Notes: generated from the sequence alone by a model not told the origin. DNA of 32,338 nt from an uncultured Eubacteriales bacterium (GCA_963655625.1 CAVKFX010000003.1:1-32338); one strand, 5' to 3'; positions 8,903-31,639 are shown, numbered from the stretch's first letter. Numbers and translations: made by a program.

Positions 8903-10507
8903 TCAGGCGCGGGTATAGACGGACTCGCCGCCGATGATGGTCTGCTCTACCCGGGCGGAGGAAACGTCGGTCACGGTGCCGTCCGCCTGGGGCGCGATGC
9001 CGGAGAGGATGACGAAGTCGGCGTATTTCCCGGCCCGGATGGAGCCCATGGTCGCCTCATCAAAGGAGCCGATGGCGTTGTGCAGGGTATAGCAGCGGAC
9101 AGCCTCCTCAAAGGTGATGACCTCCGCGGGATTGAGCAGGCGGTCGCTGTTCTTGATCTCCCGGGTCATGGCCGTGTGGATGCCCAGCAGGGGGTTGGGA
9201 TCGTCCACGGGATAGTCCGTGCCGAAGCCCACCTGGATGCCACGGTCCAGCAGGGTGCGGATGGGCTGGATGTGCATGGCACGCCGGGGACCGAGATTGT
9301 TGAAATAGGTGGTACCGAACTCCCGGATGAAGATGGGCTGGGTCATGATGAGCAGGTGGTTCAGGCGGATGGTGTCAATGAGCCGGTCATCCAGCAGCTC
9401 GGCATGCTCAATGCGCAGGCGGGCGGTATCCTTGCCGGCGGAGGCGGCATAGAGGGACGCTACATAACCGGTGGCCCGGTCGCCGATGGCGTGGACCGCC
9501 ACCTGGTGGCCGCGGTCTGCCAGGTAGGTGGCGTAGGTATCCAGACGGTGCTGCAGCAGCAGGCCGGTGTTTTCCGGCTGGTCCTGATAGGGCTCATTTA
9601 CCGCGGCGGTGCGGCTGCCGAAGCTGCCGTCGGCGAAGAGCTTTACGGAGCCGATCTTCAGCCGTCCGGCGGGGTGCCGGGCCTTCAGGTCCGTGAGCCA
9701 GCGGTCAAAATCCCCGGCGGGCTCGCCGTCCCCGGGGCGGACCATCAGATAGGTGCGCAGGAGCAGGGCGCCCCGGCGCTCCATCTCCTCATAGGCCTCC
9801 ACATAGGCCCGGGGGAGCATCATGTCGGTGCCGGCATCGTGGATGGCGGTGATGCCGCAGCGCAGGAGCAGGTCCTGCTCCTGCAGCAGGTAGCGCTGCA
9901 CCACCTCCGGGTCTGCCTCGGGCATGGAGTCCAGCACGTATTGCTGGGCACCCTCGGTGGCAAGGCCGGTGTAGGCGCCGGAGGCGTCCTTGATAAAGGC
10001 ACCGCCCTGGATGGACTCCATTTTTTCCGGGTCGAGGCGGTCTATCACCTGGGAATTGACAACGCACATGTGACCGCAGACCCGGATGATGGTCACGGGA
10101 ACGTCGGGAAAGACCTTATCCATGTCCCGGCGCGTGACCATGCGGCCGTCGTCCAGATTTTCCTCGGAGAAGCCGAAGACGCTGATCCAGGCCTCGCCGC
10201 TGCCCTCCTTTTCCCGGCGGACGTAGGAGAGCATATCCTCCACGGAGGCAAAGCGCCGGTCGGATATATCCAGCTTCAGTCGGTTCAGGGCGGCGGTGAG
10301 CATGTGCAGGTGGGAGTCGATAAAGCCCGGCAGCAGCATGCGGCCCCGGAGGTCCACGGGCTGGGCCCCGGCGGCCAGGGCATCGGGCATGTGGCAGGAC
10401 CGGCCCACGGAAAGGATGCGGTCATCCTCCGTGAGGACGTAATCCGCCCGGGGGCAGGCATCGTCCATGGTGAGGATGGTACCATTATAATATAGCTTTT
10501 TGGACAT
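8903..10507 (-). CDS. YtcJ-like metal-dependent amidohydrolase (Amidohydro_3)
   Basis: NGTILTMD, PGFIDSHLH, VKLFADGS, HAIGD, RIEH, GTDYP and GKYADFVIL motifs. GGGGAG SD precedes ATG 10507. Confidence 0.9.
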   Translation of the reverse strand: MSKKLYYNGTILTMDDACPRADYVLTEDDRILSVGRSCHMPDALAAGAQPVDLRGRMLLPGFIDSHLHMLTAALNRLKLDISDRRFASVEDMLSYVRREKEGSGEAWISVFGFSEENLDDGRMVTRRDMDKVFPDVPVTIIRVCGHMCVVNSQVIDRLDPEKMESIQGGAFIKDASGAYTGLATEGAQQYVLDSMPEADPEVVQRYLLQEQDLLLRCGITAIHDAGTDMMLPRAYVEAYEEMERRGALLLRTYLMVRPGDGEPAGDFDRWLTDLKARHPAGRLKIGSVKLFADGSFGSRTAAVNEPYQDQPENTGLLLQHRLDTYATYLADRGHQVAVHAIGDRATGYVASLYAASAGKDTARLRIEHAELLDDRLIDTIRLNHLLIMTQPIFIREFGTTYFNNLGPRRAMHIQPIRTLLDRGIQVGFGTDYPVDDPNPLLGIHTAMTREIKNSDRLLNPAEVITFEEAVRCYTLHNAIGSFDEATMGSIRAGKYADFVILSGIAPQADGTVTDVSSARVEQTIIGGESVYTRA

Positions 10508-10521
10508 AGCGTTTTCTCCCC

Positions 10522-11976
10522 TTACAATTGTTTCAGAATGTTTTTCACGAACGTCCACAGGACGCCTACGGACTCGATGCCCATATATTCCCGGGGGGTA
10601 TGCTCGTCATAAATGATGGGGCCCATGGAGATGATGTCCATGTCCGGCACAGCTTTTTTGAACAGGGAGCACTCGGTGCCGGCGTGGGTCACCTTAAAGC
10701 GGGGCTGGGCGTTAAATTCCCGGAGATATTCCTGCTCCACCAGCTTGCGCACCGGGGAGTCGGGGTCATAATCCCAACTGGGAAGGGGCTGCCCTTCCTC
10801 CAGGGAGGCACCGGACAGGGCTGCCGCGGCGCGCCACTTCTGGCACATGTATGCCAAAAGGGATTCCTTGCAGCTGCGGGCCGAGAGATAGTATAGCACC
10901 TGGTCGCCGTCTATTTCAACATTGCCGATGTTGCTGGAGCACTCCGGCACGTCCGAGAAGGTGCGCTGCATGGAAAGTACCCCGTTAGGGAGAACCTGCA
11001 GCAGGCGGGATAGCGTCTGCACGCTTGCCTGAGACAGGACCCGGGCGGCTCCATCGGCGGCGGACAGGCGCAGGCAGATACCGTCGTCCACATCGCGCAG
11101 TTCATCCTGCAGGGACCGTTCAAATCTGCGCAGGGATTCCGTGAGGCGGGGCATATCCACCGGGTAGAGCAGCACCATACACTGGGCGGGGATGCCGTTT
11201 TTGTTTTCCTGGGTGGTGTCGCCGCTGCTGAGAGAGAGGATTTGGGCATTTTCCTGCAGCAGAAACGCCAGCAGCCGGCCCAGCAGCACGCTGCTGTTGC
11301 CTCGGCCCTTCTGAATGTCGCCGCCGGAGTGGCCGCCCTGAAGGCCTGTCAGGTCAATGCGCAGAGCCTCACGGACGGGGCAGGGATCGAATGTGACGCG
11401 CTGGCGCAGCAGGGCCTTCTGATTGCCGGCGCAGCCTACATAGATGCGGCCCTCAGTAAAGCCGCCGGCATCAAAGTTGATCATAGTGCGGCCCCGGAGC
11501 TGGCGGGCATCGAAGTGGGAGGCACCCACCATGCCGATCTCCTCGGCGGTGGTGAACACAGCCTCGATGGCCGGGTGGATCAGCGTGTCGTCATCCAGAA
11601 TGGCCAGCTGATAGGCAACGCCGATGCCGTTGTCGGCACCCAGGGTGGTACCCCGGGCCCGAATCTTATCGCCGTCTATGTACAGGTCCAGGCCCTGGGT
11701 GTCGAAATCGTGTTCCACGCCCTCCTCTACGGCGCAGATCATGTCCATATGGGACTGCAGCACCAGGCCGGGCCGGTCCTCCCGGCCGGGAGAGGCGGGC
11801 TTGCGGATGAGAATGTTGCGGTACTCGTCCTCAATACACTCCAGGCTTCGCTCCCGGGCAAACTGCATGAGAAAGGACGACAGCTTCTCCTCCCGCAGAG
11901 AGGGGTGGGGGATGGAACAGACCACCTCAAACCAGTGCATAACGGCCTGGGGGGCCAGATCTTTCAGCACATTCAT
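10522..11976 (-). CDS. pepD: PepD-like M20C dipeptidase (aminoacyl-histidine/Xaa-dipeptidase family)
   Basis: IPHPS, LQSHMDM, TTLGADNGIG, EEIGM, GGHSG, HAGTEC and H.P.E motifs. GAAAGGAG SD precedes ATG 11976. Confidence 0.88.
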   Translation of the reverse strand: MNVLKDLAPQAVMHWFEVVCSIPHPSLREEKLSSFLMQFARERSLECIEDEYRNILIRKPASPGREDRPGLVLQSHMDMICAVEEGVEHDFDTQGLDLYIDGDKIRARGTTLGADNGIGVAYQLAILDDDTLIHPAIEAVFTTAEEIGMVGASHFDARQLRGRTMINFDAGGFTEGRIYVGCAGNQKALLRQRVTFDPCPVREALRIDLTGLQGGHSGGDIQKGRGNSSVLLGRLLAFLLQENAQILSLSSGDTTQENKNGIPAQCMVLLYPVDMPRLTESLRRFERSLQDELRDVDDGICLRLSAADGAARVLSQASVQTLSRLLQVLPNGVLSMQRTFSDVPECSSNIGNVEIDGDQVLYYLSARSCKESLLAYMCQKWRAAAALSGASLEEGQPLPSWDYDPDSPVRKLVEQEYLREFNAQPRFKVTHAGTECSLFKKAVPDMDIISMGPIIYDEHTPREYMGIESVGVLWTFVKNILKQL

Positions 11977-12076
11977 GGGGGTACTCCTTTCGTGTTTGAG
12001 AGATAAAAATGGGAGATCTGCTCCGCATTTTACAGCGACACGCCGGATCTCCCAATTGTTCCGCGCAGGCGGAGAA

Positions 12077-13039
12077 TTATTTATGCAGTTCGCAGGCCAC
12101 AAAGTGTCCCGGGCTGACCTCTACCAGGGGCTTATCGGTACCCTCGCAGGCGGGGGTGGCAAACTCGCAGCGCTTGCAGAAGCGGCAGCCGGGCTTGACG
12201 TTGATGGGGCTGCTGACCTCGCCCTTGATGGTCTTGAAGGGAATGTCCCGCTTGGACAGATCCGGCTCGGGAATGGCGGCAAGCAATGCCTGGGTATAGG
12301 GGTGCAGGGGGTTATTGAACAGCTCCTCGGAGGGGGCGATCTCCACCGCCTGGCCCAGATACATGACCATGATCCGGTCGGAAATGTGCTTGACCACGCT
12401 GAGGTCGTGGGTGATGAAGAGATAGGTCAGATTCAGCTCGTCACCAAGGTCCATGAGGAGGTTCAGGATCTGGGCCTGGATGGATACGTCCAGGGCCGAG
12501 ACCGGCTCATCGCAGACGATGAACTTGGGATTCAGGGACAGGGCGCGGGCAATGCCGATGCGCTGGCGGCGGCCGCCGTCCAGCTCATGGGGGTACATGT
12601 TGGCATAGCGCCGGGCCAGGCCCACCATGTCCATCAGCTCCGCGGCGCGGTTATAGATGTCGGCCCGGTGGGCGTAGGTCTTATGGATGATCATGTACTC
12701 GGCAATGACCTCGATGACAGACTTGCGGGGGTCGATGCTGGCGTAGGGGTCCTGGAAGATGATCTGCAGATCCTGGCGCAGGGGACGGAACTTCCGCTGG
12801 CTGATCTTGGTGACATCCTGGCCCTTGTAGATGATCTGGCCGGAGGTGGGCTCCACCAGGCGGAGGATGCTTCGGCCCAAGGTGGACTTGCCGCAGCCGG
12901 ATTCGCCCACTACACCGATGGTTTCGCCCTCCTGGATATCCAGGTTGATGCCATCCACCGCATGGAGGGTGGCACCGCCGTTGAGCTTGAAATAGGTTTT
13001 CAGATCCTTCAGCTGGATCAGCGGAGTGGCGTTATCCAT
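12077..13039 (-). CDS. Oligopeptide/dipeptide ABC transporter ATP-binding protein (OppF/DppF type)
   Basis: Walker [15 protein letters not shown], signature [20 protein letters not shown] and C-terminal Cys motif. Confidence 0.93.
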
Positions 13040-14141
13040 TCATATTCTCCTTCCTGCTGCCGTCGGGATTAAACCGGTGGCAGCACAGCTGATGGGTGCC
13101 GGAAACGGAGACGCTGGGATGCTCCCGGCGGCAGAGGTCGGTGGCGTACTTGCACCGCTCGGCAAATACGCAGCCCTCCGGCAGGTTGGTGGGATCGGGC
13201 ATCAGGCCGGGAATGGCGTTGAGGCGGCGGGACTTGGAACGCAGATCCGGGATGGAGCCGAACAGCCCCTCGGTATAGGGGTGGTGGTTCTCGCCCTCGA
13301 AAATGTCCTGCACCGTGCCGTACTCCACGATCTCGCCGGCATACATGACGCCTACATCGTCGCAGATCTTGGCCACGATGCCCAGGTCATGGGTGATCAT
13401 CAGCATGGAGGTGCCCAGACGGTCACGCAGGTCCTTGATCATCATAAGCACCTGGGCCTGGATGGTCACATCCAGGGCGGTGGTGGGCTCATCGGCGATG
13501 AGCAGGTCCGGCTCACAGGCCAGGGCAATGGCGATGATGACGCGCTGCTTCATGCCGCCGGAGAACTGATGGGGATACTCCACCTTGCGGGCCGGGAGGA
13601 TGCCCACCATCTGCAGGGTGCTTTCCACACGCTGCTCCACCTCCTCCTTGCTCAGGTGGGGGTTATGGATCTTGATGGCCTCGGCGATCTGGTCGCCCAC
13701 GGACATGACGGGGTTCAGGCTGGTCATGGGGTCCTGGAAGATCATGGAGATGCGATTGCCGCGGATGGCGCGCATCTTCTTTTCGGCCATATACTTGGGG
13801 GCGGGTAGCTCTACCTCGGCGGGGTCGCCGCCCTCGGGGGTATGGGCGGCCAGGTACTCCTCCTTGGAGAGGGGATTGCCGCTGCGGTCCCGGATGGACA
13901 GCACATCCTGGCCGTCAAATTCGATGGAGCCGGTGGGGATCTGGGCCGTGCGGTCCGGCAGCAGGCCTAAGATCGCCCGGGCCGTTGTGGTTTTGCCGGC
14001 ACCAGTCTCGCCTACCAGGCCGAAGGTGCTTTTGCGCTTGATGGCGATGTTGATGCCGTTGACTGCTTTCACCGTTTCCAGATCGGTTTTATAGATCACG
14101 GAAAGGTCCTTGATTTCCAAAATGTTGTTGTTATCATTCAT
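13032..14141 (-). CDS. Oligopeptide/dipeptide ABC transporter ATP-binding protein (OppD/DppD type) with an approximately 34-aa insertion
   Basis: Walker [37 protein letters not shown] and HPYT. GAGG SD precedes ATG 14141. Confidence 0.93.
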
Positions 14142-14163: not shown

Positions 14164-15063
14164 TTAAGATTTCAGGTGCGGATCCATGGCATCCCGGAGA
14201 CCGTCGCCCACCAGGTTGACGGAGCAGGCGGTGATGACGATGGCCAGGGCGGGGAAGACCAGCATGTGAGGCGCTACACGCATATACTCGCGGGCATCGG
14301 AGATGATCTGGCCCCATTCGGGAGCGGGTGGCGGCATGCCTAGGCCCAAAAAGCCAAGGGTGGACTCATAGAGGATGATCTTGGCCACGTTCAGAGTCGT
14401 GTTGACAATGATGACGCCCATGGCATTGGGGAAGATATGGGAGAGGATGATGCGGGCGCTGCTGGCGCCGCCGGCCTTGGCCGCTTCCACATACTCAAGG
14501 TCTGACAGACTGAGGATCTGAGAGCGGACCAGGCGCACATAGTTGGTGAAGTAGGCCAGGGTCAGAGCGATGACCAGGTTCACGGTGTTGGCACCCAGGG
14601 CGAACACCACGGCCATGGTGAACAGAATGTCCGGCACGGACATGAAGATGTCCAGGCCGCGCATGATGATGCTGTCCACCTTGCCGCCGAAGTAACCGGC
14701 GATGGCACCCAGGGCACAGCCCACCACGCAGGAGGACAGGGTGGCCAGCACGGCGATGGCGATGGAGGTGCGGCCGCCGTAGAGCACCCGGGCCAGCAGG
14801 TCACGGCCATAGGAGTCCAGGCCGAAGATGTGCTCGGCAGAGGGGGTGGCCAGCTTCTGAGACAGATTCTGGGTCACGGCGGAATCATAGGTGGCGAACA
14901 GGTTGGCGAAGATCAGAAAGAAGGCGATGAGACACAGCATCACAAGGCCGATCATGGAGCCGGGGTTCTTGCGGAAGCGGCGCCAGATCTCCTTGAGCTG
15001 GCTGGGCTTTTTGAACTTGATGGGCTCGGCAGCGGCAGCCGCGGGCGTTACTTTTTCACTCAT
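14164..15063 (-). CDS. Oligopeptide/dipeptide ABC transporter permease (OppC/DppC type)
   Basis: HIFGLDSYGRD, YVEAAKAGGAS (EAA loop), PEWG and NLVGDGLRDAMDP motifs. AAGGAGG SD. Confidence 0.93.
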   Translation of the reverse strand: MSEKVTPAAAAAEPIKFKKPSQLKEIWRRFRKNPGSMIGLVMLCLIAFFLIFANLFATYDSAVTQNLSQKLATPSAEHIFGLDSYGRDLLARVLYGGRTSIAIAVLATLSSCVVGCALGAIAGYFGGKVDSIIMRGLDIFMSVPDILFTMAVVFALGANTVNLVIALTLAYFTNYVRLVRSQILSLSDLEYVEAAKAGGASSARIILSHIFPNAMGVIIVNTTLNVAKIILYESTLGFLGLGMPPPAPEWGQIISDAREYMRVAPHMLVFPALAIVITACSVNLVGDGLRDAMDPHLKS

Positions 15064-15075: not shown

Positions 15076-16017
15076 TTATCCTTTAACGCGGGTGTACTTG
15101 GCCTTGATGCGGGGATCTACGAAGGCGTAGATGATATCCACCAGCAGCATGATCGCCGTGAATGTAATGGAGATGACGATGGTGCCGGCGATGATGACCG
15201 GCTCATCCTTATAGGCGATACGGTCCACGATCAGCGCGCCGATGCCGGGGACGGAGAACAGACGCTCTGCCACCACGGCACCCATGATGAGGCCGCCCAT
15301 GTTCAGGCCGATGTTGGTGATGACCGGCAGGAGGGCGTTTTTCAGAGCGTGCTTCCAGATGACGGTGCGCTCCGTGGCACCCTTGGCCCGGGCGGTATCG
15401 ATATAGTCGGCGCGGATGGACTCCAGCATGGAGGATTTGGTGAACCGGACATTAAATGCCGTTACGGGGATGGCCATGCACAGCGCCGGCATGATATAGC
15501 TTTTCCAGGTGGCTAAGCCATAGGATGGCAGCCAGTTCAGTTTCAAAGAGAAAATCAGCAGCAGCGACATGCCCAGCACGAAGGACGGGATGGCCGCCAG
15601 AAGAAACGCCAGAACAGAGGGAACATAGTCCCAGACGGAGTATTGCTTCACTGCGGTGAGGATGCCTAAGGGCACGCCCACCAGGGTTGAGATGATGATG
15701 CCGATGACGGACAGCTTCAGCGTGACGCCGAAGCGGGGCAGCACCTCGTCTGCCACGTCCTGACCGGTGAAATAGGAGGTGCCGAAGCTCTGGTCAACGA
15801 CCAGATTTTTTACATAGCGGGCGTATTTTACCAAAAGAGGATCATTATAGCCCAGCTCTTCATTCAGCTGGTCCACTGCTTCCTGAGGAGCGGACACGCC
15901 AAGGATAGATCTACCGGGATTGCCGGGGGTAAGGTTCAGCACGAAGTAGATGATGAAGATAACACCCAGGATCGTCGGTATCAGGAACAAAATGCGTTTG
16001 AGTACATACCGATACAC
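15076..16017 (-). CDS. Oligopeptide/dipeptide ABC transporter permease (OppB/DppB type)
   Basis: PGNP, DYIDTARAKG, HALKNALLP and DIIYAFVDPRI motifs. AAAGGAGG SD precedes GTG 16017. Confidence 0.93.
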   Translation of the reverse strand: MYRYVLKRILFLIPTILGVIFIIYFVLNLTPGNPGRSILGVSAPQEAVDQLNEELGYNDPLLVKYARYVKNLVVDQSFGTSYFTGQDVADEVLPRFGVTLKLSVIGIIISTLVGVPLGILTAVKQYSVWDYVPSVLAFLLAAIPSFVLGMSLLLIFSLKLNWLPSYGLATWKSYIMPALCMAIPVTAFNVRFTKSSMLESIRADYIDTARAKGATERTVIWKHALKNALLPVITNIGLNMGGLIMGAVVAERLFSVPGIGALIVDRIAYKDEPVIIAGTIVISITFTAIMLLVDIIYAFVDPRIKAKYTRVKG

Positions 16018-16112: not shown

Positions 16113-17675
16113 TCAGCTGGCGGAGACCCAGCTGAAGTTTCTGACCTTGTAGTAGGTGGGAACGGGGGTGCCCACATCCAGGTCATCGGCCCAGACGATG
16201 GCCACAGGACGGTTGATCAGGGGCAGGATGGTGGCGGTATCCATGATCATGGACCACAGCTCGGTGTAGTAGGTCATGCGCTCATCCTGCTTGGCAGTGC
16301 CGGCGCCCAGGGCGACCAGCTCTTCCATACGCTTCCAGTTGAACTTGTCACCGATGGTGTAGTTGATGACGTACATACCAACGGACTCGCTGTGGACCTG
16401 CTGACGGATGTTATTGAAGTCGTAGTTGCCGGAGTCGCCGTAGACGCAGATGTCATAGTCCTGAGCCTGCCACTTTTCAACGGCCATGGACACGTCCAGC
16501 ATCTCCACCTTGGCATGGATGCCGACGGCTTCTAGATCAGCCTGGAGCACCTGGGCGGTCTTGGAGTTGTGGGCGGAGCTGGTGGTCAGAATGGTGCCCA
16601 CATCCACACCGTCGGGATAGCCGGCCTCGGCCAGCAGGGACTTGGCCTTATCGGGGTTGTAGGCATAGGTCTCAAAGCCGGTGGTGGGCTGGGTGGGGCA
16701 GTACTCGGGAACCATGTAGGTATCGGTGGCCTTGCCGTAGCCCTCGGCCACAGCCAGGTTCACGTCTTCCTTGTTGATGGCGTAGAACATGGCCTTGCGG
16801 ACCAGGTCGTTATTCAGAACGGTGGCGTTCTTGCTGGCATAGTTGATGCCCATCCAGATGACGTTGTTGCCGGTGACCATGGCGCTGTGAGCGTCGCCGG
16901 CCTTCTTATACAGGGAGTCCCAATCGGACAGAGCTGCTTCCTCGTAGTAATCCAGCTCGCCGTTCTCATAGGCGATGACGGCGGCGGCGGAGTCAGCGAA
17001 CACGCGGTACTCAACCTTCTTGATGTTGGGAGCGCCCTGCCAATACTTGTCATAGGCGGACAGCTTCGCACCGGTGGAGACATCGTATTCGGTGACATAA
17101 TAGGCACCGGTGCCGGCGGTGTTGGGGATGGTGCCGAACTTATCGCCCTGCTGGGTCACTTCGTTCTCCTCCACGATCTTCACGCGGAACAGGGTGTGCG
17201 CGATGGGAGCGTAGGCATACTTCATGTGGATGACGAAGGTCTGGTCATCGGGAGCTTCCACACTGTCGATCATGGTGGTCAGGTAGGTCATGTTGGCGTT
17301 CTTGAAGGCACGCTCATAGGTGAACACGCAGTCGGAAGCGGTGAGAGCCTCGCCGTTCTGGAAGGTGATGCCGTCCTTGAGGGTGATGGTGTAGGTCATG
17401 GAGTCGTCGCTGACTTGAACGTCCTTGGCCAGCTCGTTGTAGTAGCCGCCCTCGGCTTCGTTCATGCCGTACAGACCCTCATAGATCTGGTCATAGAGCT
17501 TGATATCGTGGGTGTTATTGCTGTTTGCGGGGTCAAGGGTAGTGAATGCGGTTTCGGCTCTGAGGACCAGAGTCTTTTCGCTGGGATCGGTGTTGTCGTT
17601 GGTTTTCTTGCCGCAACCGGCCAGAAGACCCAGAGTCATGACGACTGCGAGGCAAAGCGCGATAATCTTTTTCAT
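16113..17675 (-). CDS. Family 5 (OppA/DppA) ABC substrate-binding lipoprotein
   Basis: Signal peptide II MKKIIALCLAVVMTLGLLAG-C; LDP, IYEGL, LKDGITFQNG, GTGAY, VRKAM and AKSLLAEAGY motifs. AAAGGAG SD. Confidence 0.93.
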   Translation of the reverse strand: MKKIIALCLAVVMTLGLLAGCGKKTNDNTDPSEKTLVLRAETAFTTLDPANSNNTHDIKLYDQIYEGLYGMNEAEGGYYNELAKDVQVSDDSMTYTITLKDGITFQNGEALTASDCVFTYERAFKNANMTYLTTMIDSVEAPDDQTFVIHMKYAYAPIAHTLFRVKIVEENEVTQQGDKFGTIPNTAGTGAYYVTEYDVSTGAKLSAYDKYWQGAPNIKKVEYRVFADSAAAVIAYENGELDYYEEAALSDWDSLYKKAGDAHSAMVTGNNVIWMGINYASKNATVLNNDLVRKAMFYAINKEDVNLAVAEGYGKATDTYMVPEYCPTQPTTGFETYAYNPDKAKSLLAEAGYPDGVDVGTILTTSSAHNSKTAQVLQADLEAVGIHAKVEMLDVSMAVEKWQAQDYDICVYGDSGNYDFNNIRQQVHSESVGMYVINYTIGDKFNWKRMEELVALGAGTAKQDERMTYYTELWSMIMDTATILPLINRPVAIVWADDLDVGTPVPTYYKVRNFSWVSAS

Positions 17676-18379: not shown

Positions 18380-18510
18380 CAAACCTTCCTTTCTGCGAGG
18401 GCAGAGTCCTTTTTCTCTGCGCTGCTTAACTGCTACTGTATCTTCTTTTTTGGGGCCAATTCTGACACTTGGTTAAACCGCACAAGTTTCACGGAATGGG
18501 CTGCATTCTT

Positions 18511-18538
18511 AATTGTCGATATTATATTGTCGACAATT
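18511..18538. promoter_or_regulatory. Tandem operator 1 (putative GntR/FCD site)
   Basis: aaTTGTCGATAttataTTGTCGACAAtt: two units 14 bp apart, the second a perfect palindrome, directly downstream of the promoter at 18545-18573. Confidence 0.75.
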
Positions 18539-18544
18539 TTCTTT

Positions 18545-19016: not shown

Positions 19017-19062
19017 TGACCCGGCGGGATCTTCGGAAGCTGCCGAAGATCCCGCCGGGTCA
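19017..19062 (-). terminator. Intrinsic terminator of the oxidoreductase-ligase-aminotransferase-racemase operon
   Basis: Perfect 20-bp inverted repeat TGACCCGGCGGGATCTTCGG-aagctg-CCGAAGATCCCGCCGGGTCA, followed on the minus strand by ATTTT; 35 bp past the racemase stop. Confidence 0.8.
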
Positions 19063-19097
19063 CAAAGGAAGAGGAAGAGGAAGTATATAGCGAAAAT

Positions 19098-19799: not shown

Positions 19800-19819
19800 A
19801 GGCATGCCTCCCCGAAGGC

Positions 19820-23830: not shown

Positions 23831-24643
23831 TTATAACGGCATGTTGGTGCCGGCGTAGATGGGCTTATCCACACAGAGGAAGTTGCCCAGGGCCAGCTTG
23901 CCTTCTTTTTCTTCGTCGGTCATCTGCGCGCCCTTGGCCTGGGGGTAGGTGACGCTCTGGATATACTCCGCCACCTTCATGGGGTCACCGGTCTTCAGAG
24001 CGTAGCGGCCATAGTGGGTGGGGCACTGGGAGACGATCTCGATGAGGGAGAAGCCCTTGTGCTGCAGGGCGCGCTCCATGGCCTGCTTGCACTGCAGGGG
24101 CTGCATGGTGGTCCAGCGCTCCACGTGGGTGGCGCCGGCGGCCAGGGCCAGCTTGCACACGTCGAACCGGGGCTCGCCGCTGCCGTAGGGGGTGGTCATG
24201 GTGCGGGACTCCTCCGGAGTGGTGGGCGCCACCTGGCCGCCGGTCATGGCGAAGTTCATGTTGTTCACCATGACTACGGTCACGTCCAGGTTGCGGCGGC
24301 AGGACTGGATCATGTGGTTGCCGCCGATGGAGACCAGGTCGCCGTCACCGGCAAAGATCACCACGGGCAGCTCCGGGCGCATCATCTTTACGCCGGTGGC
24401 CCAGGCCAGGGTGCGGCCGTGGACGCCGTGGAACATGTCGGTCTTGATATAGATGGGGATGCGGGCCGTGCAGCCCACGCCGCCGATGTGCAGCATCTGC
24501 TCGGGGTCCATGTGCAGCTCATCCAGGGCCTGGATGTAATAGTTCAGCACCTGGCCGCAGCCGCAGCCGGCGCAGAAGAAGTGAGGAAGCTTTTCCTTGC
24601 GCAGATATTTCCGCAGGGGGTTGATCTTCAGCTGGTCTGCCAT
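23831..24643 (-). CDS. 2-oxoacid:ferredoxin oxidoreductase beta (TPP/Fe-S) subunit
   Basis: FCAGCG, GVGC, HGR, GDGD..IGGNH, NN..FAMTGGQVAPT and CP motifs. Confidence 0.93.
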   Translation of the reverse strand: MADQLKINPLRKYLRKEKLPHFFCAGCGCGQVLNYYIQALDELHMDPEQMLHIGGVGCTARIPIYIKTDMFHGVHGRTLAWATGVKMMRPELPVVIFAGDGDLVSIGGNHMIQSCRRNLDVTVVMVNNMNFAMTGGQVAPTTPEESRTMTTPYGSGEPRFDVCKLALAAGATHVERWTTMQPLQCKQAMERALQHKGFSLIEIVSQCPTHYGRYALKTGDPMKVAEYIQSVTYPQAKGAQMTDEEKEGKLALGNFLCVDKPIYAGTNMPL

Positions 24644-24644: not shown

Positions 24645-25814
24645 TTACTTCGTCTCCTCTCTGATCACGTTATAGATCTCCTCAGAGGTGTGGATCTGAC
24701 CTCTGTTCTTGGTGACGGGGACCACCGGGCACTTGCCGGCGGCCACCCGGGTGATTTCGTTGACATAGCGGCCCATATTCATTTCCACGGCAAAGATCCT
24801 GGAAACATTGCCGGCTACCTCCCGGATGGCCTTTTCGGGCACGGGCCAGATGTTGCACAGCTTCAGCACGCCCACCTTCACGCCGCTCTCACGGGCCATC
24901 TGGGCGGCCTCGATGGAGGGGCGGACCTCGCTGCCGTAGGTGACGATGGCGTAGTCGGCATCGTCCATCATGAACCGCTCGGTGCGGCAGATGTCGTCGG
25001 CATTTTCCCGGATCTTGCCGCACACACGGCGGTACAGCCGCTCAAAGTCGTCGGGATCCCAGTCGATGCCGCCGCGCTCATTGTGGGGGTTCAGGGAGTA
25101 GATGGTCTTATAGCCCTTGCCCAGGGGGGCGAAGTCGGGGCAGCCGTTTTCCGGCGCGCCGAAGGGGAGGTAATCCTCCGGGGCGGCGGTGGTATACTTG
25201 CGGTTGAAAAGCTCGATCTTGTCGGCGGAGGGGATCTCCAGGCGCTCACGCATCAGGGCGATGGTGGCCTCGGACATGACAATGACGGGGTTACGGTACT
25301 TTTCCGCCAGGTTGAAGGCCCAGATGGTGTAATCATACAGCTCCTGCACGGAGGAGGGGCACACCACAATGGCCTCATAGTCACCGCTGCAGCCATAGCG
25401 GAGCTGGTAGACATCCGCGTAGGTGGCGAAGTTGTCGCCCCGGGTACGCATAACATCGGCCACCACCACGGGCGCCTCGATGGTATAGCAGTAGCCCAGG
25501 CCCTCCTGCATGTAGTTAAAGCCGGCGCTGGCGGTGGCGGTCATGACTTTGCCGCCGGCCAGAGAGGCTCCGGCCAGAGCGAAAATGGAGCACAGCTCGT
25601 CCTCGCCCTGGACAAATTGACCGCCTACCTGCGGCAGCCGCTGGGACATACGCTCGGAAATTTCATTGGCGGGAGTGATGGGATAGCCGGCAAAGAAGTT
25701 GCAGCCGGCGCTGATGGCACCTTCCACAAGAGCATAGTTGCCAAGCATAAAATGCACGCCGCTGTCTACGCGCTTTTCCCATGCGTCCAGCTGATTGGCC
25801 CGAATGATCGACAT
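24645..25814 (-). CDS. 2-oxoacid:ferredoxin oxidoreductase alpha subunit
   Basis: GNYA, AGYPITPA, EDE, TATA..GF.YMQE, AEKYRNPV, YGS and VEMNMG motifs. Confidence 0.93.
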   Translation of the reverse strand: MSIIRANQLDAWEKRVDSGVHFMLGNYALVEGAISAGCNFFAGYPITPANEISERMSQRLPQVGGQFVQGEDELCSIFALAGASLAGGKVMTATASAGFNYMQEGLGYCYTIEAPVVVADVMRTRGDNFATYADVYQLRYGCSGDYEAIVVCPSSVQELYDYTIWAFNLAEKYRNPVIVMSEATIALMRERLEIPSADKIELFNRKYTTAAPEDYLPFGAPENGCPDFAPLGKGYKTIYSLNPHNERGGIDWDPDDFERLYRRVCGKIRENADDICRTERFMMDDADYAIVTYGSEVRPSIEAAQMARESGVKVGVLKLCNIWPVPEKAIREVAGNVSRIFAVEMNMGRYVNEITRVAAGKCPVVPVTKNRGQIHTSEEIYNVIREETK

Positions 25815-25875
25815 GGCATAATTCCTTTCTCTTTAAATAAGCTGGTCGGGTCTGTCACAGGATGAATAAAAAATA

Positions 25876-25900
25876 CTGTCGACAATATACAATCCGACAA
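25876..25900. promoter_or_regulatory. Tandem operator 2 (putative GntR/FCD site)
   Basis: cTGTCGACAAtatacaATCCGACAA, directly downstream of the promoter at 25905-25933. Confidence 0.72.
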
Positions 25901-26007: not shown

Positions 26008-27531
26008 TTAGTTATTGACCTTGGTTTCGCCCAGCACCCACACACGGCGGATGCCCACGGGGGGGATGGCAGGCTCCAGATAGGAGTTGGCGGAGTTGAT
26101 GGTGGCCGGGTCGAACAGGACCAGGTCGGCATCCATGCCCCGGCGGATCAGGCCCCGGTCCCACAGACGCAGGCGGCGGGCCGGCTCGGAGGTGATGTGG
26201 CGGATGGCCTCCTCCAGAGGCATGACCTGCAGATCCCGGACATAGTGGCCCAGGAAGCGGGGGAAGGAGGCGTAGGCCCGGGGATGGGGATGCGCGCCCA
26301 TAATGCCGTCGGTGCAGACGCAGTGGGCGTCGCTCTTCATGACATAGATGACGTCGTCCTCGGAGATGGAGAAATAAATGGCGATGACCTCGGGGCCCTC
26401 GTGCTGCAGGATGTGCAGCACGGCGGTGCCCACCTCCATGCCCAGCTTTTCGCTGATGTAGTCCATCTTTTGGCCGGCCATCCAGGCGTATTCCTCCGTG
26501 GCGACGGAGGCCAGCATGATGCACTCGGCGCCGCCCCGGGCCTGGATCTCGTCCTGGGTCTCCTTGAGGATCTTCTGATAGGTGTCCGGATCCTTCAGGC
26601 GCTGCTGGAAGCCCTGCTCGCCGCCATCGTAGGCCCACTGAGGCACGCAGACCTTCAGCCCCGTGCAGGCGGCGGTCCAGGGGTACTGGTCCAGGGTCAC
26701 GTCGTAGCCCTGGGCGCGCATGGCGTTGATGGACGCCATGGACTGGTGGACCTTGCCCCAGTTCCGGGGGCCCAGGGCCTTGTGGTGGGAGATCTGCAGG
26801 CGGACGCCGCTCTCCCGGACGATGGTGTTCATCTCCTCCACGGACTCCAGGAGTTTGTCCTTCTCACTGCGCATATGCACCATGATGAGGCCGTCGTAGG
26901 CGGCCACCACCTTGGCCATTTCAATAAGCTCCGGGGTCTGGGCGAAGCTGCCGGGAGGATAGATAAGACCCAGGGACATGCCCTTGGCGCCCTGCTCCAG
27001 GCAGCGGGCCAGCAGGGCCTTCATCTGCTCCAGCTCCTGGGCGGTGGGCTCCCGGTTATCGTTGCCCATAACGTTCATGCGGATGGTGCCGTGGCCCACC
27101 AGGCCCACAAAGCGGGCGGAGGGATGGGCGTTTTCCACGGTCTGCTCATAGTCGGCGAAGGAGCGCCAGGTATAGGGGCCGGGGATGGTGCCGGCCAAGG
27201 GGGCCATGTTGTCGGCCAGCTCCTGGACCAGGTCGTCGGTCAGGGGCGCCACGGAGGAGCCGTCCTGGCCCAGAACTTCCGTAGTGATACCCTGCTGCAC
27301 CACCTGGGGCAGGGCGGGGTTGCGGATGAGCTCCAGCTCGTTATGGCTGTGGGTGTTGATGAAGCCGGGGGCCAAAGCCAGACCGGCGGCGTCCACCACC
27401 TCCCAATCGCTCTGGGGGGGGATGACACCGATCTGAGCGATGACGGAGCCGCCGATGAGAACATCGGCGTGGAAGGGCTTGCAGCCGGTGCCGTCATAGA
27501 CGGTGGCATTCCGGATCAAAGTTTTTTTCAA
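26008..27531 (-). CDS. N-acyl-D-amino-acid deacylase (D-aminoacylase) family protein
   Basis: DGTG, APGFINTHSH, QGITT, GLIYPPG, HMRSE, QISHHK, DQYPWTA, TDG, HPRAY.SFPR and ADLVLFDP motifs. AAAGGAGG SD precedes TTG 27531. Confidence 0.92.
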   Translation of the reverse strand: MKKTLIRNATVYDGTGCKPFHADVLIGGSVIAQIGVIPPQSDWEVVDAAGLALAPGFINTHSHNELELIRNPALPQVVQQGITTEVLGQDGSSVAPLTDDLVQELADNMAPLAGTIPGPYTWRSFADYEQTVENAHPSARFVGLVGHGTIRMNVMGNDNREPTAQELEQMKALLARCLEQGAKGMSLGLIYPPGSFAQTPELIEMAKVVAAYDGLIMVHMRSEKDKLLESVEEMNTIVRESGVRLQISHHKALGPRNWGKVHQSMASINAMRAQGYDVTLDQYPWTAACTGLKVCVPQWAYDGGEQGFQQRLKDPDTYQKILKETQDEIQARGGAECIMLASVATEEYAWMAGQKMDYISEKLGMEVGTAVLHILQHEGPEVIAIYFSISEDDVIYVMKSDAHCVCTDGIMGAHPHPRAYASFPRFLGHYVRDLQVMPLEEAIRHITSEPARRLRLWDRGLIRRGMDADLVLFDPATINSANSYLEPAIPPVGIRRVWVLGETKVNN

Positions 27532-27578: not shown

Positions 27579-27602
27579 TGTCGAATACATACAGTCGACA
27601 AT
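27579..27602. promoter_or_regulatory. Tandem operator 3 (putative GntR/FCD site), shared by two opposed promoters
   Basis: TGTCGAAtacatacAGTCGACAAT; GTCGA cores 14 bp apart as in operator 1. Confidence 0.72.
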
Positions 27603-27614
27603 ATACGTAAGCAA

Positions 27615-27782: not shown

Positions 27783-28931
27783 ATGGACGAGTACAGCGAA
27801 TTGTTTCAGTTATTAAAGAAAATGGTATCTTTCCCGTCTACGGACGGAAATGAAGCGGGCATCAGCGACTTCCTGGCGGAAAATGCCCGGGTTATGGGAA
27901 TGGACCTGGTGGAGCAGCAGGAGGCGCTGCCGGGCCTGAAAAACGTCATCGCCGTAAAGACCTTCGGCCGGGGCGGCAAGCGGATCGTGCTCAACTCCCA
28001 CATGGATGTGGTGCCCCCGGCGGACGGCTGGGATACGGACCCGTATGACCTGGTCATCAAGGGCGACCGGGCCTACGGCCGGGGTTCCACCGATGCCAAG
28101 GGCCCCCTGGCGTGCCTGACCATGGCGGTGAAGCGGATCATTGAGAACCCGGAGGGGGTCAACGGCACCATCGTATATACCGCCGTGGTGGACGAGGAGA
28201 GCCACTCCACCGGCGCCAGGACCCTGGTGAAGCACCCCCAGGTGTACGGCGACTACTGCATCGTGGGTGAGCCGACTCTCTCCCGGGTGGCGGTCAGCCA
28301 CAACGGCAGCCTGCGGCCGGTGATCGTGGCGGAGGGGCTGTCCGTCCATGCCTCCAACCCGGAGCTGGGCATCAACGCCATCCGCATTGCGGCCTACATC
28401 TCCCAGCTGGTGGATGAGATCGCAGATGAAATTTCCGGCATTGTGCATCCTGCAACGGGGAAGCCGTCCATTGCCATCACCATGATCTCCGGCGGCGTGC
28501 AGGAGAACGTGGTGCCCGACCGCTGCGAGATCACCATCGACCGGCGCATGGTGCCGGGGGAGGATGAACAGCAGCTGCGCCGGCGGTTTGACCGGCTGTG
28601 CCAGGAGGCCCAGGAGCATTTCCCCGGCAGCCGGGTCTATGTGGACCATTATCTGGTCACCACCGGCCCCGCAGCGGAGACCCCGGCGGACAGCGAGCTG
28701 GTGCAGACCGCCTTTGCCGCGGCTAAGGCGGCCGGCGGGGAGGACCAGGAGCCCTTCGGCCTGACCTGCAACACGGATATGAACCACTTTACCCGCGCGG
28801 GCATCCCCACGGTGATCATCGGTCCGGGGACCATTACGGTGGCCCACAAGCCCAATGAATACGTGGCTCTGGAGCAGCTGGAAAAGACCTGCGCCGTGGA
28901 TGAGGCGGTCATTCGGGCGCTGCTGAAATAA
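27783..28931 (+). CDS. M20A metallo-deacylase (ArgE/DapE-like)
   Basis: LNSHMDVV, GRGSTDAKG, VDEE, GEPT, HAS.P..G.NA, NVVPD, DRR and AHKPNE motifs. AAAGGAG SD. Confidence 0.92.
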   Translation: MDEYSELFQLLKKMVSFPSTDGNEAGISDFLAENARVMGMDLVEQQEALPGLKNVIAVKTFGRGGKRIVLNSHMDVVPPADGWDTDPYDLVIKGDRAYGRGSTDAKGPLACLTMAVKRIIENPEGVNGTIVYTAVVDEESHSTGARTLVKHPQVYGDYCIVGEPTLSRVAVSHNGSLRPVIVAEGLSVHASNPELGINAIRIAAYISQLVDEIADEISGIVHPATGKPSIAITMISGGVQENVVPDRCEITIDRRMVPGEDEQQLRRRFDRLCQEAQEHFPGSRVYVDHYLVTTGPAAETPADSELVQTAFAAAKAAGGEDQEPFGLTCNTDMNHFTRAGIPTVIIGPGTITVAHKPNEYVALEQLEKTCAVDEAVIRALLK

Positions 28932-28950: not shown

Positions 28951-30102
28951 ATGTCTTGCGGTTTGGAAAATGCCAACACCGTGGTGACGGTGGACCTGGG
29001 AAAGGTGCGGCGCAACATTGAGCGCATCCGCAGCCATATTGGCCCCGATGTTGACATTATGTACACGGCCAAGTCCAACGGCTACGGCCACGGACTGATC
29101 CGGCCTACCCTGTTCATGCGCGACAAGTGCGGCATCCACTGCTTTGCCACCGGCCAGCTCAGCGAGGCGCTGGAGCTGCGGCAGGCGGGGCTGGAGGATT
29201 TCATACTGGTGCTGGGGGGCATCCCCTACAGCGGTGTGCCCGCCTTCGTGGCAAACGACCTGGTGGCCACGGTGTATGAGGATACGCTGCCCCGGGCACT
29301 GAATGAGGAGGCGGCCCGGCAGGGAAAACGCGTGCGGGTACACATTAAAATAGACACGGGGCTGCGGCGATTCGGCGTGCAGCCCGGCGAGCAGCTGGCG
29401 CACCTGATGGAGACGCTGCGGGGCCTGCCCTACCTGGAGATAGACGGAGTATATACCCATCTGGCCAACGGCTACTCTTTGGACAAATCCTTTACCCACC
29501 GGCAGATGGGCCTGTTCACCCAGGCACTGGAGCAGCTGAAGGCGTCGGGGATCCGGCCCCGGCTCGTCCACGCGGCCAATACGGCGGCCTGCGTGGCCTC
29601 CCCGGAGTGTTACTACGATGTGGTGCGCCTGGCGGCGCTGATCTTCGGCTATGACATCTCCCCCGGCATCCCCAACCGGCTGAGCCTGGAGCCGTCCATG
29701 CGCTGGACCAGCAAGATACTGAACGTGCTGTGGGCCGAGGAGGGCGAAAATGTCAGCTACTACCGGTTTTTTGTGCCCAAGCGCCCCACGAAGATCGCCA
29801 TCATCGGCTTCGGCATGGGCGACGGATATTACCGGGGCCTTGTGACCCGGGACACCGAACACAATGCCGACGTGCTGATCCACGGCCAGAGAGCGCGGTT
29901 GCTGGACCTGAACGTGGATGTAGCCTTTGCCGATGTGACGGACATACCCGACGTGCGGATCGGCGACACGGCGGTGCTCATCGGCCAGGACGGCCGGGAC
30001 GAGATCACCTCCATGGAACTGGGCGAAAAGGGCGGCACGTCCAACGGGCACATTTGCTGCTCCATCACCGGCCGCCCCCTGCGGTACTATATCAATGAGT
30101 GA
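28951..30102 (+). CDS. Alanine racemase-fold PLP enzyme with a divergent substrate pocket
   Basis: AKSNGYGHG (PLP Lys41), EALELR, HIKIDTGL.R.G, YTHLA, HAAN, VSY (Tyr270) and G.GDG motifs. Confidence 0.88.
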   Translation: MSCGLENANTVVTVDLGKVRRNIERIRSHIGPDVDIMYTAKSNGYGHGLIRPTLFMRDKCGIHCFATGQLSEALELRQAGLEDFILVLGGIPYSGVPAFVANDLVATVYEDTLPRALNEEAARQGKRVRVHIKIDTGLRRFGVQPGEQLAHLMETLRGLPYLEIDGVYTHLANGYSLDKSFTHRQMGLFTQALEQLKASGIRPRLVHAANTAACVASPECYYDVVRLAALIFGYDISPGIPNRLSLEPSMRWTSKILNVLWAEEGENVSYYRFFVPKRPTKIAIIGFGMGDGYYRGLVTRDTEHNADVLIHGQRARLLDLNVDVAFADVTDIPDVRIGDTAVLIGQDGRDEITSMELGEKGGTSNGHICCSITGRPLRYYINE

Positions 30103-30826
30103 GCGGGTGAGCGCGCCTGTGCTGGCACGCCGGTACAGCGCTAAGCTGCTGCGGATGGTCATAGGCTTCAGCTTCATTGCCCTGGGTGTGGTGATCGCCA
30201 AGCAGTCCTACTGCCTGTCCCCCTGGAACGTGCTCAATGACGGCCTGGCCTATACATTTCCCATTACCATCGGCCAGGCCAATATCACCGTGGGCATGAC
30301 CATACTGGTTATAAACCTGTTGTTTCTGCACGAGACCTTCGGCGTGGGAACGGTACTGAATATATGGCTGGTGGGCGTTATTACGGACCTGCTGATGAAG
30401 CTGAACGCTGCCTGGGACATTCTGCCCAAGATCCACTCCGTGCCGCTGCAGATCCTTTGCTGCCTGGTATCACTTATATGCAATGCCCTGGGGATCTATT
30501 TCTACATGTCCGCCCGGATGGGGGCGGGACCCCGGGACACGGTGATCGTATTTCTCACCAAGCATCTGCCGCTGCCGGTGGGGCTGTGCAAGCTGCTGCT
30601 GGAGGCTGCGGCGTGCCTGGTGGGCTGGCTCATCGGCGGCGAGGTGGGCATCGGTTCGCTGATCTCCGTTTTTTGCGGCGGGCCGATCCTGCAGCAGGTT
30701 TTTCGCCTGTTCCGTTTCCAGGTGAAGCAGCTTCGGGGTGAGAATATAACCGATACATGGCAAATTCTCCGGGGAAAAAGATTGCCGCCGGAGATGGAAA
30801 TAACGGCGGAAACTACGGGAAAATGA
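30095..30826 (+). CDS. YczE/YyaS/YitT-like membrane protein
   Basis: Hydrophobic throughout; SPWNVL..G, GVGT.LN, GAGPRD and GG.VGIG motifs. Overlaps the racemase stop. Confidence 0.85.
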   Translation: MSERVSAPVLARRYSAKLLRMVIGFSFIALGVVIAKQSYCLSPWNVLNDGLAYTFPITIGQANITVGMTILVINLLFLHETFGVGTVLNIWLVGVITDLLMKLNAAWDILPKIHSVPLQILCCLVSLICNALGIYFYMSARMGAGPRDTVIVFLTKHLPLPVGLCKLLLEAAACLVGWLIGGEVGIGSLISVFCGGPILQQVFRLFRFQVKQLRGENITDTWQILRGKRLPPEMEITAETTGK

Positions 30827-30844
30827 TTTGTTTTTTGCCAGCTG

Positions 30845-30873
30845 TTGACAAAGTATACAGAAAAGGTTAGAAT
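30845..30873 (+). promoter_or_regulatory. Sigma-A promoter of the GntR gene; the -35 lies within an operator-like TGTTGACAA
   Basis: TTGACA-17 bp-TAGAAT; context cTGTTGACAAAGTATACAG. Confidence 0.7.
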
Positions 30874-30934
30874 GGAAAATGGAAATCAGGACCAATCTCA
30901 GAAATAATCACGGCCTGTAAATATAGGTGTAGTA

Positions 30935-31639
30935 ATGTTTGAAAACCAAAATTTAGGAAGCAAGCCTTCTCTGAAGCAGCTTGTATACGAAAATCTGCAA
31001 AATATGATCGTGCAGGGAAAGCTGGAGCCCGGTGAAAAGCTCATCGAGGACGACCTGGCCCAGGCCATGCACATCAGCCGTGCGCCGATCCGCGAGGCCA
31101 TCAGCATGCTGGAGCGGGACGGGTTTGTCCGCATCATCCCCCGAAAGGGTGCCATCGTTGCGGAGGTATCGGAGAAGGACGCCATGGACATTTGGAAGTG
31201 TCGCCTGGCTTTGGAGCCTTTTGCCGCCAGAGAGGCCATGCCCCATATCCCCAAGGAGGAGCTGGAGGCGGCGCTGAAGCGCATCGGCAAGATCGAGAAG
31301 GACTACTCCTTTGAGGAGTATGTGGCTTCCGACCTGGAGGTGCATGGGCTGTACTATGGGCATCTGGACAATGAGTACATGAAGTCCATCCTCAACAATC
31401 TGAAGGCACACTCGATCCGGGTGCGCTGGCTGAAAGAGGTCAGAAACAGCTTTACGGATATGTCCCGCAGCTCTATCCGGGAGCACAGGCAGATCATAGA
31501 GGCCTTTCTCAGCGGGGACGGCGACCGGGTCTATAACACGGTGCAGCAGCACATTCTCAACAGTGCCGCCCGGCTGAAGGATCCCGGCGACAGCATCTTC
31601 TGCCCATCAGCGCCTAAGACGATAGAGCAAAAATCATAA
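30935..31639 (+). CDS. GntR family transcriptional regulator with FCD domain (FadR subfamily)
   Basis: wHTH L.PGEKL.E..LA....SRAPIREA...LE..G.V...PRKGA.V; FCD motifs R..LE, D..H, N and EH..I..A..H. Confidence 0.93.
   Translation: MFENQNLGSKPSLKQLVYENLQNMIVQGKLEPGEKLIEDDLAQAMHISRAPIREAISMLERDGFVRIIPRKGAIVAEVSEKDAMDIWKCRLALEPFAAREAMPHIPKEELEAALKRIGKIEKDYSFEEYVASDLEVHGLYYGHLDNEYMKSILNNLKAHSIRVRWLKEVRNSFTDMSRSSIREHRQIIEAFLSGDGDRVYNTVQQHILNSAARLKDPGDSIFCPSAPKTIEQKS

Follow-up and report, generated by a model that had tools for sequence, protein, structure and literature searches.

We analysed the whole of a 32,338-nt contig (hereafter the window) from a gut anaerobe, an uncultured Eubacteriales bacterium (GCA_963655625.1, CAVKFX010000003.1:1-32338), whose source genome is 1.09 Mb and 55%-complete. 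Between ygiQ (ending at 8790) and ychF (starting at 32080) lies a 23-kb island of 21 genes (8903-31690), made up of 20 long open reading frames (ORFs) and one 65-aa ferredoxin ORF, which spacing, hairpins and promoter-like sites divide into five probable units (Table 1). The original prediction had described the region as a 23-gene regulon forming one complete pathway for D-configured or N-acylated amino acids; every gene type it listed is present where it was placed but the count is 21. At the centre of the island are a 2-oxoacid:ferredoxin oxidoreductase (OFOR) and an ADP-forming ligase resembling succinyl-CoA synthetase (SCS, SucCD), and to judge from their alignments the substrate pockets of both enzymes are remodelled family-wide.

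A metagenome scan with the ligase motif GGFNRMD as selection pattern returned 97 stretches, 80 of them listed with flanks, and together with 9 loci from genomes these gave 89 loci falling into at least 43 clusters at 90% ligase identity. Of the 43, 22 were dropped for short flanks and 21 were counted, with four genomes of the genus (G1284, G1258, G1290 and G1296) outside the count; the figures are tallies and not a test, and kin among them are not independent. OFOR alpha, beta and gamma and SucD were present in 21/21 clusters and a small ferredoxin follows SucD in most loci (at least 66 such ORFs). The feeder genes comprised an aminotransferase in 15 clusters, GntR in 14, an AspR-type racemase in 10, the M20 clade and D-aminoacylase in 8 each, a serine-racemase-family pyridoxal phosphate (PLP) enzyme in 6, TRAP genes in 5, the ATC-family protein in 4, Opp/PepD and the Alr-like protein in 3 each, aspartate dehydrogenase (AspDH) and YczE in 2 each and Amidohydro_3 in 1. 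Neighbours seen once or in a single lineage include GltS, GDH, TctA, a D-Glu cyclase, a C26 hydrolase, an arginase-family enzyme and nitrilase-family amidases. As only the OFOR-ligase core is invariant and the feeders vary, the system is modular and the window shows one of its more elaborate forms; the single self-contained pathway first proposed is not supported. The core ranges over contigs of 33-64% G+C and 5 families of one phylum, and its database labels are succinyl-CoA synthetase or 2-oxoglutarate oxidoreductase; the ESM Atlas yielded family names only.

The ligase beta subunit scores below the SucC NCBIfam cut-offs (282 vs 370 and 265 vs 376), the alpha subunit narrowly exceeds those for succinate-CoA ligase alpha (358 vs 336 and 355 vs 353), and the acetate-CoA ligase type model TIGR02717 gives 72 bits, far below its cut-off. 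As controls we used relatives at 31-37% identity, taken among the matches listed from a genome scan with a SucC alignment, the succinate specificity of each being assumed. Beta residue 250 is Asp in 72/73 island-type ligases and Asn in 74/76 controls, GFN replaces the GI(T/V/M) whose Ile309 occurs in 76/76 controls, and alpha residue 123 is Gly in 71/71 as against Asn in 63/63 controls. The alpha subunit further has Gly181 for Asp and an SKSGALS segment, and it keeps Tyr159 (71/71) and the GHAGA motif with H247, the catalytic/phospho-His. GGFNRMD was invariant in 50/50 proteins picked by overall similarity; its conservation among the metagenome loci is circular because it was the selection pattern, the other pocket sites being unselected. 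In a quick tree built without bootstrap the island ligases form one clade (SH-aLRT 99), the long branches L089, L091 and L092 being unreliable.

The available text of a study of the 3-sulfopropionate ligase HpfYZ (PMC11489063) places the succinate C4 of SCS against a Tyr and the GIV amides, names alpha His160 with beta GIN as the marks of HpfYZ, and makes HpfZ N124 part of the phosphate/Mg/C1 site. The island ligase is without the GIV succinate loop and has half of the sulfonate signature, N310 matching the GIN Asn and alpha His160 being Tyr (71/71). With its pattern of GFN, G123 and Y159 it therefore fits neither succinate nor 3-sulfopropionate ligases, and the retained Y159 together with the change of GIV to GFN would fit a shorter dicarboxylate. 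As far as the available parts of their descriptions go (PMC10413351, PMC11489063, PMC12890257), the sulfonate ligases SauCD, SqwKL and HpfYZ are likewise retuned SCS paralogues run for ATP with Asn for the GIV Val, but their partners are CoA-acylating aldehyde dehydrogenases whereas that of the island ligase is an OFOR. HpfZ has His160 and a conserved Asn124 where the island ligase has Tyr159 and Gly123, and no sulfonate exporter lies near the island. In favour of malonate, the related sulfoacetate ligase SauCD, as far as the available literature goes, accepts malonate at 7% activity and does not act on succinate.

The OFOR alpha subunit exceeds the PRK08659 cut-off and has 2-oxoglutarate enzymes among the solved proteins nearest to it, and scores for the 2-oxoglutarate:ferredoxin oxidoreductase (KGOR) models fall short (PRK09627 285 vs 579, PRK09628 230 vs 364). 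YPITP and the carboxylate Arg are kept, and in 55/56 loci the pocket loop QRGGPSTGxPT has become (Q/M)RxRG(E/D)N, four residues shorter and with a new Arg. Thr349 of this loop sits beside the substrate side chain and its mutation had little effect, according to the accessible portion of PMC5020499; adjoining the position of this pocket-lining Thr an acidic residue has been gained (D/E127). The beta subunit has GCTAR in 62/62, with an Arg that 6N2N and 8YS5, both 2-oxoglutarate enzymes, also have. The kept beta Arg and the shorter loop with its new Arg would again fit a shorter dicarboxylate.

Comparison with a canonical system is possible within single operons. In G868 (L232, 8247-18978) an operon encodes GntR, a canonical OFOR, a canonical SCS, a 2-hydroxyacid dehydrogenase, a glutamate racemase and a GNCG deacylase, and in G1048 (L221) an operon of this type, whose canonical SucC scores 418 against a cut-off of 370, is interrupted by the island-type module together with an additional GQDG deacylase. 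The canonical operon is a probable N-acyl-D-glutamate to succinate fermentation, and since in G1048 the module sits inside it the module would serve another acid, not 2-oxoglutarate, by a route running in parallel. Both systems have the same folds, gene order, phospho-His, ATP-grasp, GntR and racemase plus D-aminoacylase partners. The island ligases nevertheless form a separate clade at 31-37% identity with DGAG/GFNR, N123G and D181G, the OFOR has the RxRG(E/D)N loop, and the feeders are AspR rather than MurI and GQDG rather than GNCG deacylases. The idea that a glutamate racemase stands in for AspR in the module was dropped, as this racemase belongs to the neighbouring canonical operon.

Ligases with both sulfonate signature residues occur in two loci of another lineage and have motifs (GGAG, GG(V/I)NN, THE) unlike those of the island. 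The first (L212; G242:C31, 479-12889) encodes an NMT1-type ABC importer, transketolase, acylating aldehyde dehydrogenase, SucCD-like ligase, DASS and TauE; assigned by context only, it looks like a SqwD/SqwKL sulfo-TK variant, and its ligase is 28% identical to that of the island. The second (L214; G250:C67, 75-6267) is an OFOR and ligase operon with alpha His, beta GIN, DASS and an OFOR beta GCSSW, by its context a candidate sulfopyruvate-to-sulfoacetate route. In L209/L210 (G052, G117), L211 and L213 there are SucCD paralogues whose pocket motifs differ again (SNGSG; VGAG with LSASS; IGGG with GGFM); they adjoin acylating aldehyde dehydrogenase, malic enzyme, LarA, citrate-lyase-like or enolase-family genes.

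Among the feeders, the window racemase scores 210 bits with P. horikoshii AspR, its closest solved relative, and below 30 with glutamate racemases; it has the two catalytic Cys and the AspR-type motifs, of which IPDRT/ISDRT, CNTAH and (V/I)K are kept in 27/27 neighbours. The aminotransferase is closest to solved aspartate aminotransferases (AspAT). The Cys, Arg and Lys of the racemase and the Lys of the subgroup Ib AspAT presumably have their usual catalytic roles. The racemase also exceeds the CuyB model NF052483 (237 vs 190), as do 4/4 neighbour racemases tested. The CuyB label carries little weight, since racemases next to groEL, next to division genes and in further unrelated contexts (the genes around them identified by eye) also exceed the cut-off of this model. 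No CuyA-type sulfo-lyase is encoded in the island, and the PLP enzyme neighbouring the core elsewhere is serine-racemase-like. A racemase passing NF052483 is what the island has in common with the CuyB/CuyA cysteate pathway in the available parts of its accounts (PMC11193023, PMC12814064); it differs in having no CuyA-type sulfo-lyase or HpsN-type dehydrogenase among annotated neighbours, and the core would not cleave the C-S bond. A DegT-family neighbour was rejected as CuyC because its likeness is at family level only (50 bits) and no HpsN was found among annotated neighbours.

The D-aminoacylase-like deacylase keeps the His and Asp metal ligands and has Asp (GQDG) for the bridging Cys of the solved D-aminoacylase (GNCG); it is predicted to be a different subtype that works like D-aminoacylase. 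The Alr-like protein has the catalytic Lys and Tyr, but LDLNVD replaces the xCMD of its PDB relatives, and LDLNVD/LDLNFD occurs in 9/10 neighbours; lacking the CMD segment, it makes the originally suggested D-Ala a doubtful substrate. In the ATC protein C127, C146, E147, H150 and C176 are invariant across the alignment and likely form a metal site. Its model (pLDDT 82) has a V4R/H-NOX/TRAPP-like fold with DmpR as best VIA match (Z 8.9, rmsd 5.2 Å over 141 residues), tied with Bet3, a Foldseek search of the model gave no match at E 0.001 or better, and the modelled protein may bind rather than hydrolyse. The YczE/YitT-like protein is a possible exporter.

Beyond the window, the AspDH neighbours score 205 with NF009828 (above its cut-off of 177) and 183 bits with TIGR03855 (below 207), the serine-racemase-family enzyme resembles 3-hydroxyaspartate dehydratases with all named subtypes below cut-off, and L195 has an Sdh/NadB-like flavoprotein. 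In L194/L195 (G571) the core also lies beside a TfrAB-like flavoprotein/Fe-S pair and beside genes that were identified by eye as lipoamide dehydrogenase, H-protein and lipoate ligase-like.

Table 1 Units, genes, operators and terminators of the island (window coordinates)
Feature	Position	Strand	Observations
Unit 1: ATC-oppABCDF-pepD-amidohydrolase		-	
Unit 2: OFOR alpha-beta-gamma-sucC-sucD-ferredoxin-aminotransferase-racemase		-	
Unit 3: D-aminoacylase		-	
Unit 4: M20-alr-yczE		+	
Unit 5: gntR		+	
Hairpin terminator, ygiQ/island boundary	8836..8872		Homology to other hosts stops at 8901-8905
Amidohydro_3 metallo-amidohydrolase, accessory	8903..10507	-	PF07969 288 bits; 1/21 clusters
PepD-type dipeptidase	10522..11976	-	TIGR01893 434 bits vs cut-off 344
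OppF ABC ATPase	12077..13039	-	Family profile matches
OppD ABC ATPase	13032..14141	-	Family profile matches
OppC permease	14164..15063	-	Family profile match
OppB permease	15076..16014	-	Family profile match
OppA family-5 lipoprotein binding protein	16113..17675	-	PF00496; lipobox; all NCBIfam subtypes below cut-off
ATC_hydrolase-family protein	17774..18376	-	PF14196 51 bits vs cut-off 28
Operator 1, promoter region of unit 1	18524..18539		Weaker half-site at 18510
20-pair hairpin terminator, end of unit 2	19017..19062	-	
PLP-independent aspartate-type racemase	19098..19805	-	C86, C198, R52, T88, K168
Aspartate aminotransferase, subgroup Ib type	19820..21001	-	PDB 1J32 376 bits; motifs PSAT, TGAKQ
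Ferredoxin / OFOR delta subunit, 65 aa, 2x[4Fe-4S]	21033..21230	-	Two CxxCxxCxxxC motifs
ADP-forming acyl-CoA ligase alpha, SucD-like	21234..22112	-	H247, Y159 kept; N123G, D181G, SKSGALS
Ligase beta, SucC-like	22116..23237	-	SDGAG, GGFNRMD in place of NGAG, GGI(V/T/M)R
OFOR gamma	23256..23816	-	PF01558
OFOR beta	23831..24643	-	GCTAR Arg kept
OFOR alpha	24645..25814	-	YPITP kept; loop (Q/M)RxRG(E/D)N
Operator 2, 5' of OFOR alpha	25873..25888		
D-aminoacylase-family deacylase, GQDG subtype	26008..27531	-	
Operator 3, in the divergent deacylase/M20 intergenic region	27589..27604		
ArgE/DapE-family M20 deacylase, core-linked clade	27783..28931	+	GLTCNTDMNH; TIGR01910 253 vs 218
Alr-family PLP racemase, atypical acceptor-side segment	28951..30102	+	TIGR00492 235 vs 168
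YczE/YitT-like membrane protein	30095..30826	+	NF052291 116 bits, below cut-off 205
GntR-FCD regulator	30935..31639	+	Own sigma70-like promoter 30845-30873
GC-rich hairpin and T run	31646..31690	+	Homology to G1284 stops at 31690

A palindromic operator, ATATTGTCGAC(A/T)RT, lies upstream of the ATC-Opp unit (18524), of the OFOR unit (25873) and of the divergently transcribed deacylase and M20 genes (27589). A matrix made from these three sites ranks the same three top in the genome, as expected by construction, and gives one independent match within the island (20979-20994, score 22.9; next best elsewhere 18.5), the fourth-best in the genome, which sits within the opening codons of the aminotransferase gene. 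The pattern TTGTCGACAA with one mismatch allowed gave 5 matches against 0.58 expected, with 0/100 shuffles reaching 5, this pattern having been picked after it was seen and 2/5 matches lying in the tRNA or in coding sequence. Equivalent promoters carry the operator in the four genomes of the genus (3 sites each in G1284 and G1258, 1 each in G1290 and G1296, before OFOR alpha) and also in L136 and L102. The shared operator claimed for the island is thus present at three promoters, but upstream of gntR in the window no site scores 9 or more (an operator-like site 5' of gntR scores 14.5 in L102), and a single regulon is suggested by motifs only. The block is probably co-regulated, and GntR would bind the operator and co-induce the units.

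An OFOR alpha orthologue was found in 4/97 other genomes of the genus, and the ligase in 0/36 genomes of an earlier genus draw, 1/400 of the family, 2/398 scored of the class and 5/400 of the phylum, many of the genomes surveyed being incomplete. The congener G1284 has the entire block 8903-31690 at 92-95% DNA identity with other flanks, and G1290 the entire block at 72-82% with the Opp unit in another place. The units do co-occur in other genomes, whole in the first and rearranged in the second, and also in L139 and L102/L170. In the close congener G030 both flanks match at 90-94% and about 9 kb of other genes lie between ygiQ and ychF. G305 belongs to a different genus and is 91-94% identical as far as 8901; it is without the deacylase-to-GntR half because its contig stops there, which is not evidence of absence. 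Contigs in 3/4 runs compared match from 8903-8905 and continue into other DNA. There is no integrase inside the block and there are no terminal repeats, and neither G+C nor its third-codon-position value (GC3) differs between the island and flanking genes. Patchy presence, fixed edges (8903, 31690) and different flanks identify the region as an island, and the block is real and mobile.

Around these edges, the slot in G030 (L207) carries cysteine-synthase-like and Rrf2-like genes, named by eye, the ygiQ-ychF slot of G012 (L208) carries about 3.4 kb of different cargo, and a second, unrelated Opp operon lies directly past the left edge of the island in G1284 (L247, 10586 onward). The AT-rich 716-bp spacer from the racemase to the ATC gene (18382-19098) is mostly swapped for other DNA in G305, in one run and probably in others. 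Outside the island, a serine-recombinase fragment (PF07508, PF00239) at 1-595 of the window runs into a sugar ABC permease end and precedes a second permease and an AGE-family epimerase, and the only Rfam match in the window is a tRNA-Ser(GGA) (4487-4578, minus strand).

Oxidative peptide and Stickland fermentation proceeds through an aminotransferase, an OFOR and an ADP-forming acyl-CoA synthetase, and the island has the same energetic logic with an SCS-type ligase in place of the acetate-CoA ligase type and with feeders specific for acidic amino acids. Our analysis supports the transamination, OFOR, ligase and ATP sequence of the original prediction as well as its feeding by D- and N-acyl substrates. 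We consider it likely that an acidic amino acid is converted to a 2-oxoacid and an acyl-CoA with gain of ATP, the acid released being other than succinate, and D- or L-aspartate, or a compound closely resembling it, is the probable substrate from which the enzyme pair gains ATP. The block would then be a mobile, GntR-controlled scavenging unit built around a dedicated oxidative fermentation core. Opp would import short peptides or N-blocked amino acids, and aspartate would be freed from these by PepD and the amidohydrolase, by the M20 deacylase for L forms and by the D-aminoacylase for D forms; the racemase would turn D-Asp into L-Asp, the Ib aminotransferase L-Asp into oxaloacetate, the remodelled OFOR oxaloacetate into malonyl-CoA with reduction of the encoded ferredoxin, and the remodelled SucCD-type ligase malonyl-CoA into malonate and ATP. 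Each of these reactions and substrates is what we infer; the gene families, synteny, operator motifs and pocket substitutions behind them are observed.

Aspartate is ranked first because the AspR-like racemase, AspAT and the AspDH-like, hydroxyaspartate-dehydratase-like and NadB/Sdh-like neighbours converge on Asp/oxaloacetate, and of the substrates originally suggested D-Asp survives best. The full chain, from D- or L-Asp (free, N-acylated or in peptides) through oxaloacetate and malonyl-CoA to malonate, ATP and reduced ferredoxin, is nevertheless a tentative proposal held at less than even confidence, and several observations weigh against it. An OadA-like carboxyltransferase domain occurs in 9/9 core genomes and 9/9 others, none above the cut-off; oxaloacetate could thus already be turned into pyruvate, and a dedicated oxaloacetate route looks redundant. 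The new acidic pocket residues (ligase D250, OFOR D/E127) would be a better match for an amine or hydroxyl group than for malonate. A malonate decarboxylase search of 18 genomes returned only 70-residue partial matches in 2, and the 9 core genomes among them gave no alpha subunit of this enzyme. The Alr-like racemase and the ATC-family protein are left without a role, and an adjacent AspR is lacking in 11/21 clusters.

The same acidic residues are accommodated if the substrate is a beta-substituted aspartate (3-hydroxyaspartate or 2,3-diaminosuccinate) processed through tartronyl- or aminomalonyl-CoA to tartronate or aminomalonate and ATP, since N123G and D181G open the C1 site, D250 adds an acceptor and OFOR D/E127 lies next to the Thr349 position. 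Two stereocentres would also give work to the two racemases of the window, and the neighbours include hydroxyaspartate-dehydratase-like enzymes (6/21), an AcnX-like dehydratase (L167) and a DapE-like M20. A dehydratase giving oxaloacetate directly would however bypass the core, and the Alr-like gene occurs in just 3/21 clusters, and we regard this route as unlikely. Aspartate might instead be the product, with 4-oxoglutamate (from 2,4-diaminoglutarate or 4-hydroxyglutamate) yielding aspartyl-CoA and then Asp and ATP, and AspR, AspAT and AspDH disposing of the Asp. This asks for the smallest pocket change, Y159 and the beta Arg being kept and one acid added per enzyme, it is not redundant with oxaloacetate decarboxylation, and GltS, GDH, TAXI, D-Glu cyclase and C26 are Glu-type neighbours. 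We think it improbable, as no biological source of diaminoglutarate or oxoglutamate was found (literature matches were chemistry by title listing) and the adjacent glutamate racemase belongs to the neighbouring Glu operon.

A non-desulfonating cysteate route (cysteate to sulfopyruvate, sulfoacetyl-CoA and finally sulfoacetate and ATP) draws on the racemase scores above the CuyB cut-off, on N310 as the Asn of the sulfonate-ligase GIN signature and on the precedent of SauCD, SqwKL and HpfYZ, and sulfopyruvate would need its own OFOR. The second signature residue is Tyr in all 71 alpha subunits, four queries found no DASS, TauE or NMT1 homologue in the 89 loci, the lineage that does have both signature residues carries DASS exporters and in L214 already pairs ligase with OFOR, the CuyB model is not specific to context and D250 disfavours a sulfonate, so that cysteate, an original candidate, is weakened to a rather remote prospect. 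Ordinary conversion of glutamate to succinate by KGOR and SCS, or a broad Stickland-type oxidative branch of the kind that the original prediction implied, is the least probable of the readings set out here and D-Glu an unlikely substrate, since SucD narrowly passes the succinate-CoA ligase alpha cut-offs and OFOR alpha passes PRK08659 but SucC falls below both of its cut-offs, the GIV motif and NGAG Asn of a succinate-type pocket are replaced family-wide, a canonical Glu/succinate operon coexists beside the module in G1048 and the racemase is not MurI-like. All other readings taken together are also unlikely. Phosphonoalanine to phosphonoacetate was rejected with no phosphonate transporter or hydrolase among 90 neighbours scanned, and carboxymethyl-lysine, ectoine/diaminobutyrate and arginine routes because they leave AspR, AspAT and AspDH unaccounted for.

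The original prediction did not recognise the island as a described cluster and we found no published description of the OFOR-ligase module in the literature searched, although one may exist as most subscription journals lie outside its coverage. The pairing of an OFOR with SCS is textbook logic, on which this clade appears to have rebuilt both substrate pockets in a core of six genes, and the two enzyme specificities are probably new. We see an even case for an anaerobic energy pathway that is widespread and has escaped study. It would rest on two new activities, a ferredoxin oxidoreductase of oxaloacetate type and an ADP-forming ligase acting on malonate or, more boldly, on an amino acid (aspartyl- or aminomalonyl-CoA serving as the ATP-yielding thioester) from an unrecognised amino-dicarboxylic metabolite in guts and sediments. 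If the route from aspartate to malonate is true, microbes of the gut would have in it a means of disposing of D-aspartate and N-acyl-aspartate that also supplies malonate, and engineering would gain an enzyme that converts oxaloacetate into malonyl-CoA in a single step.

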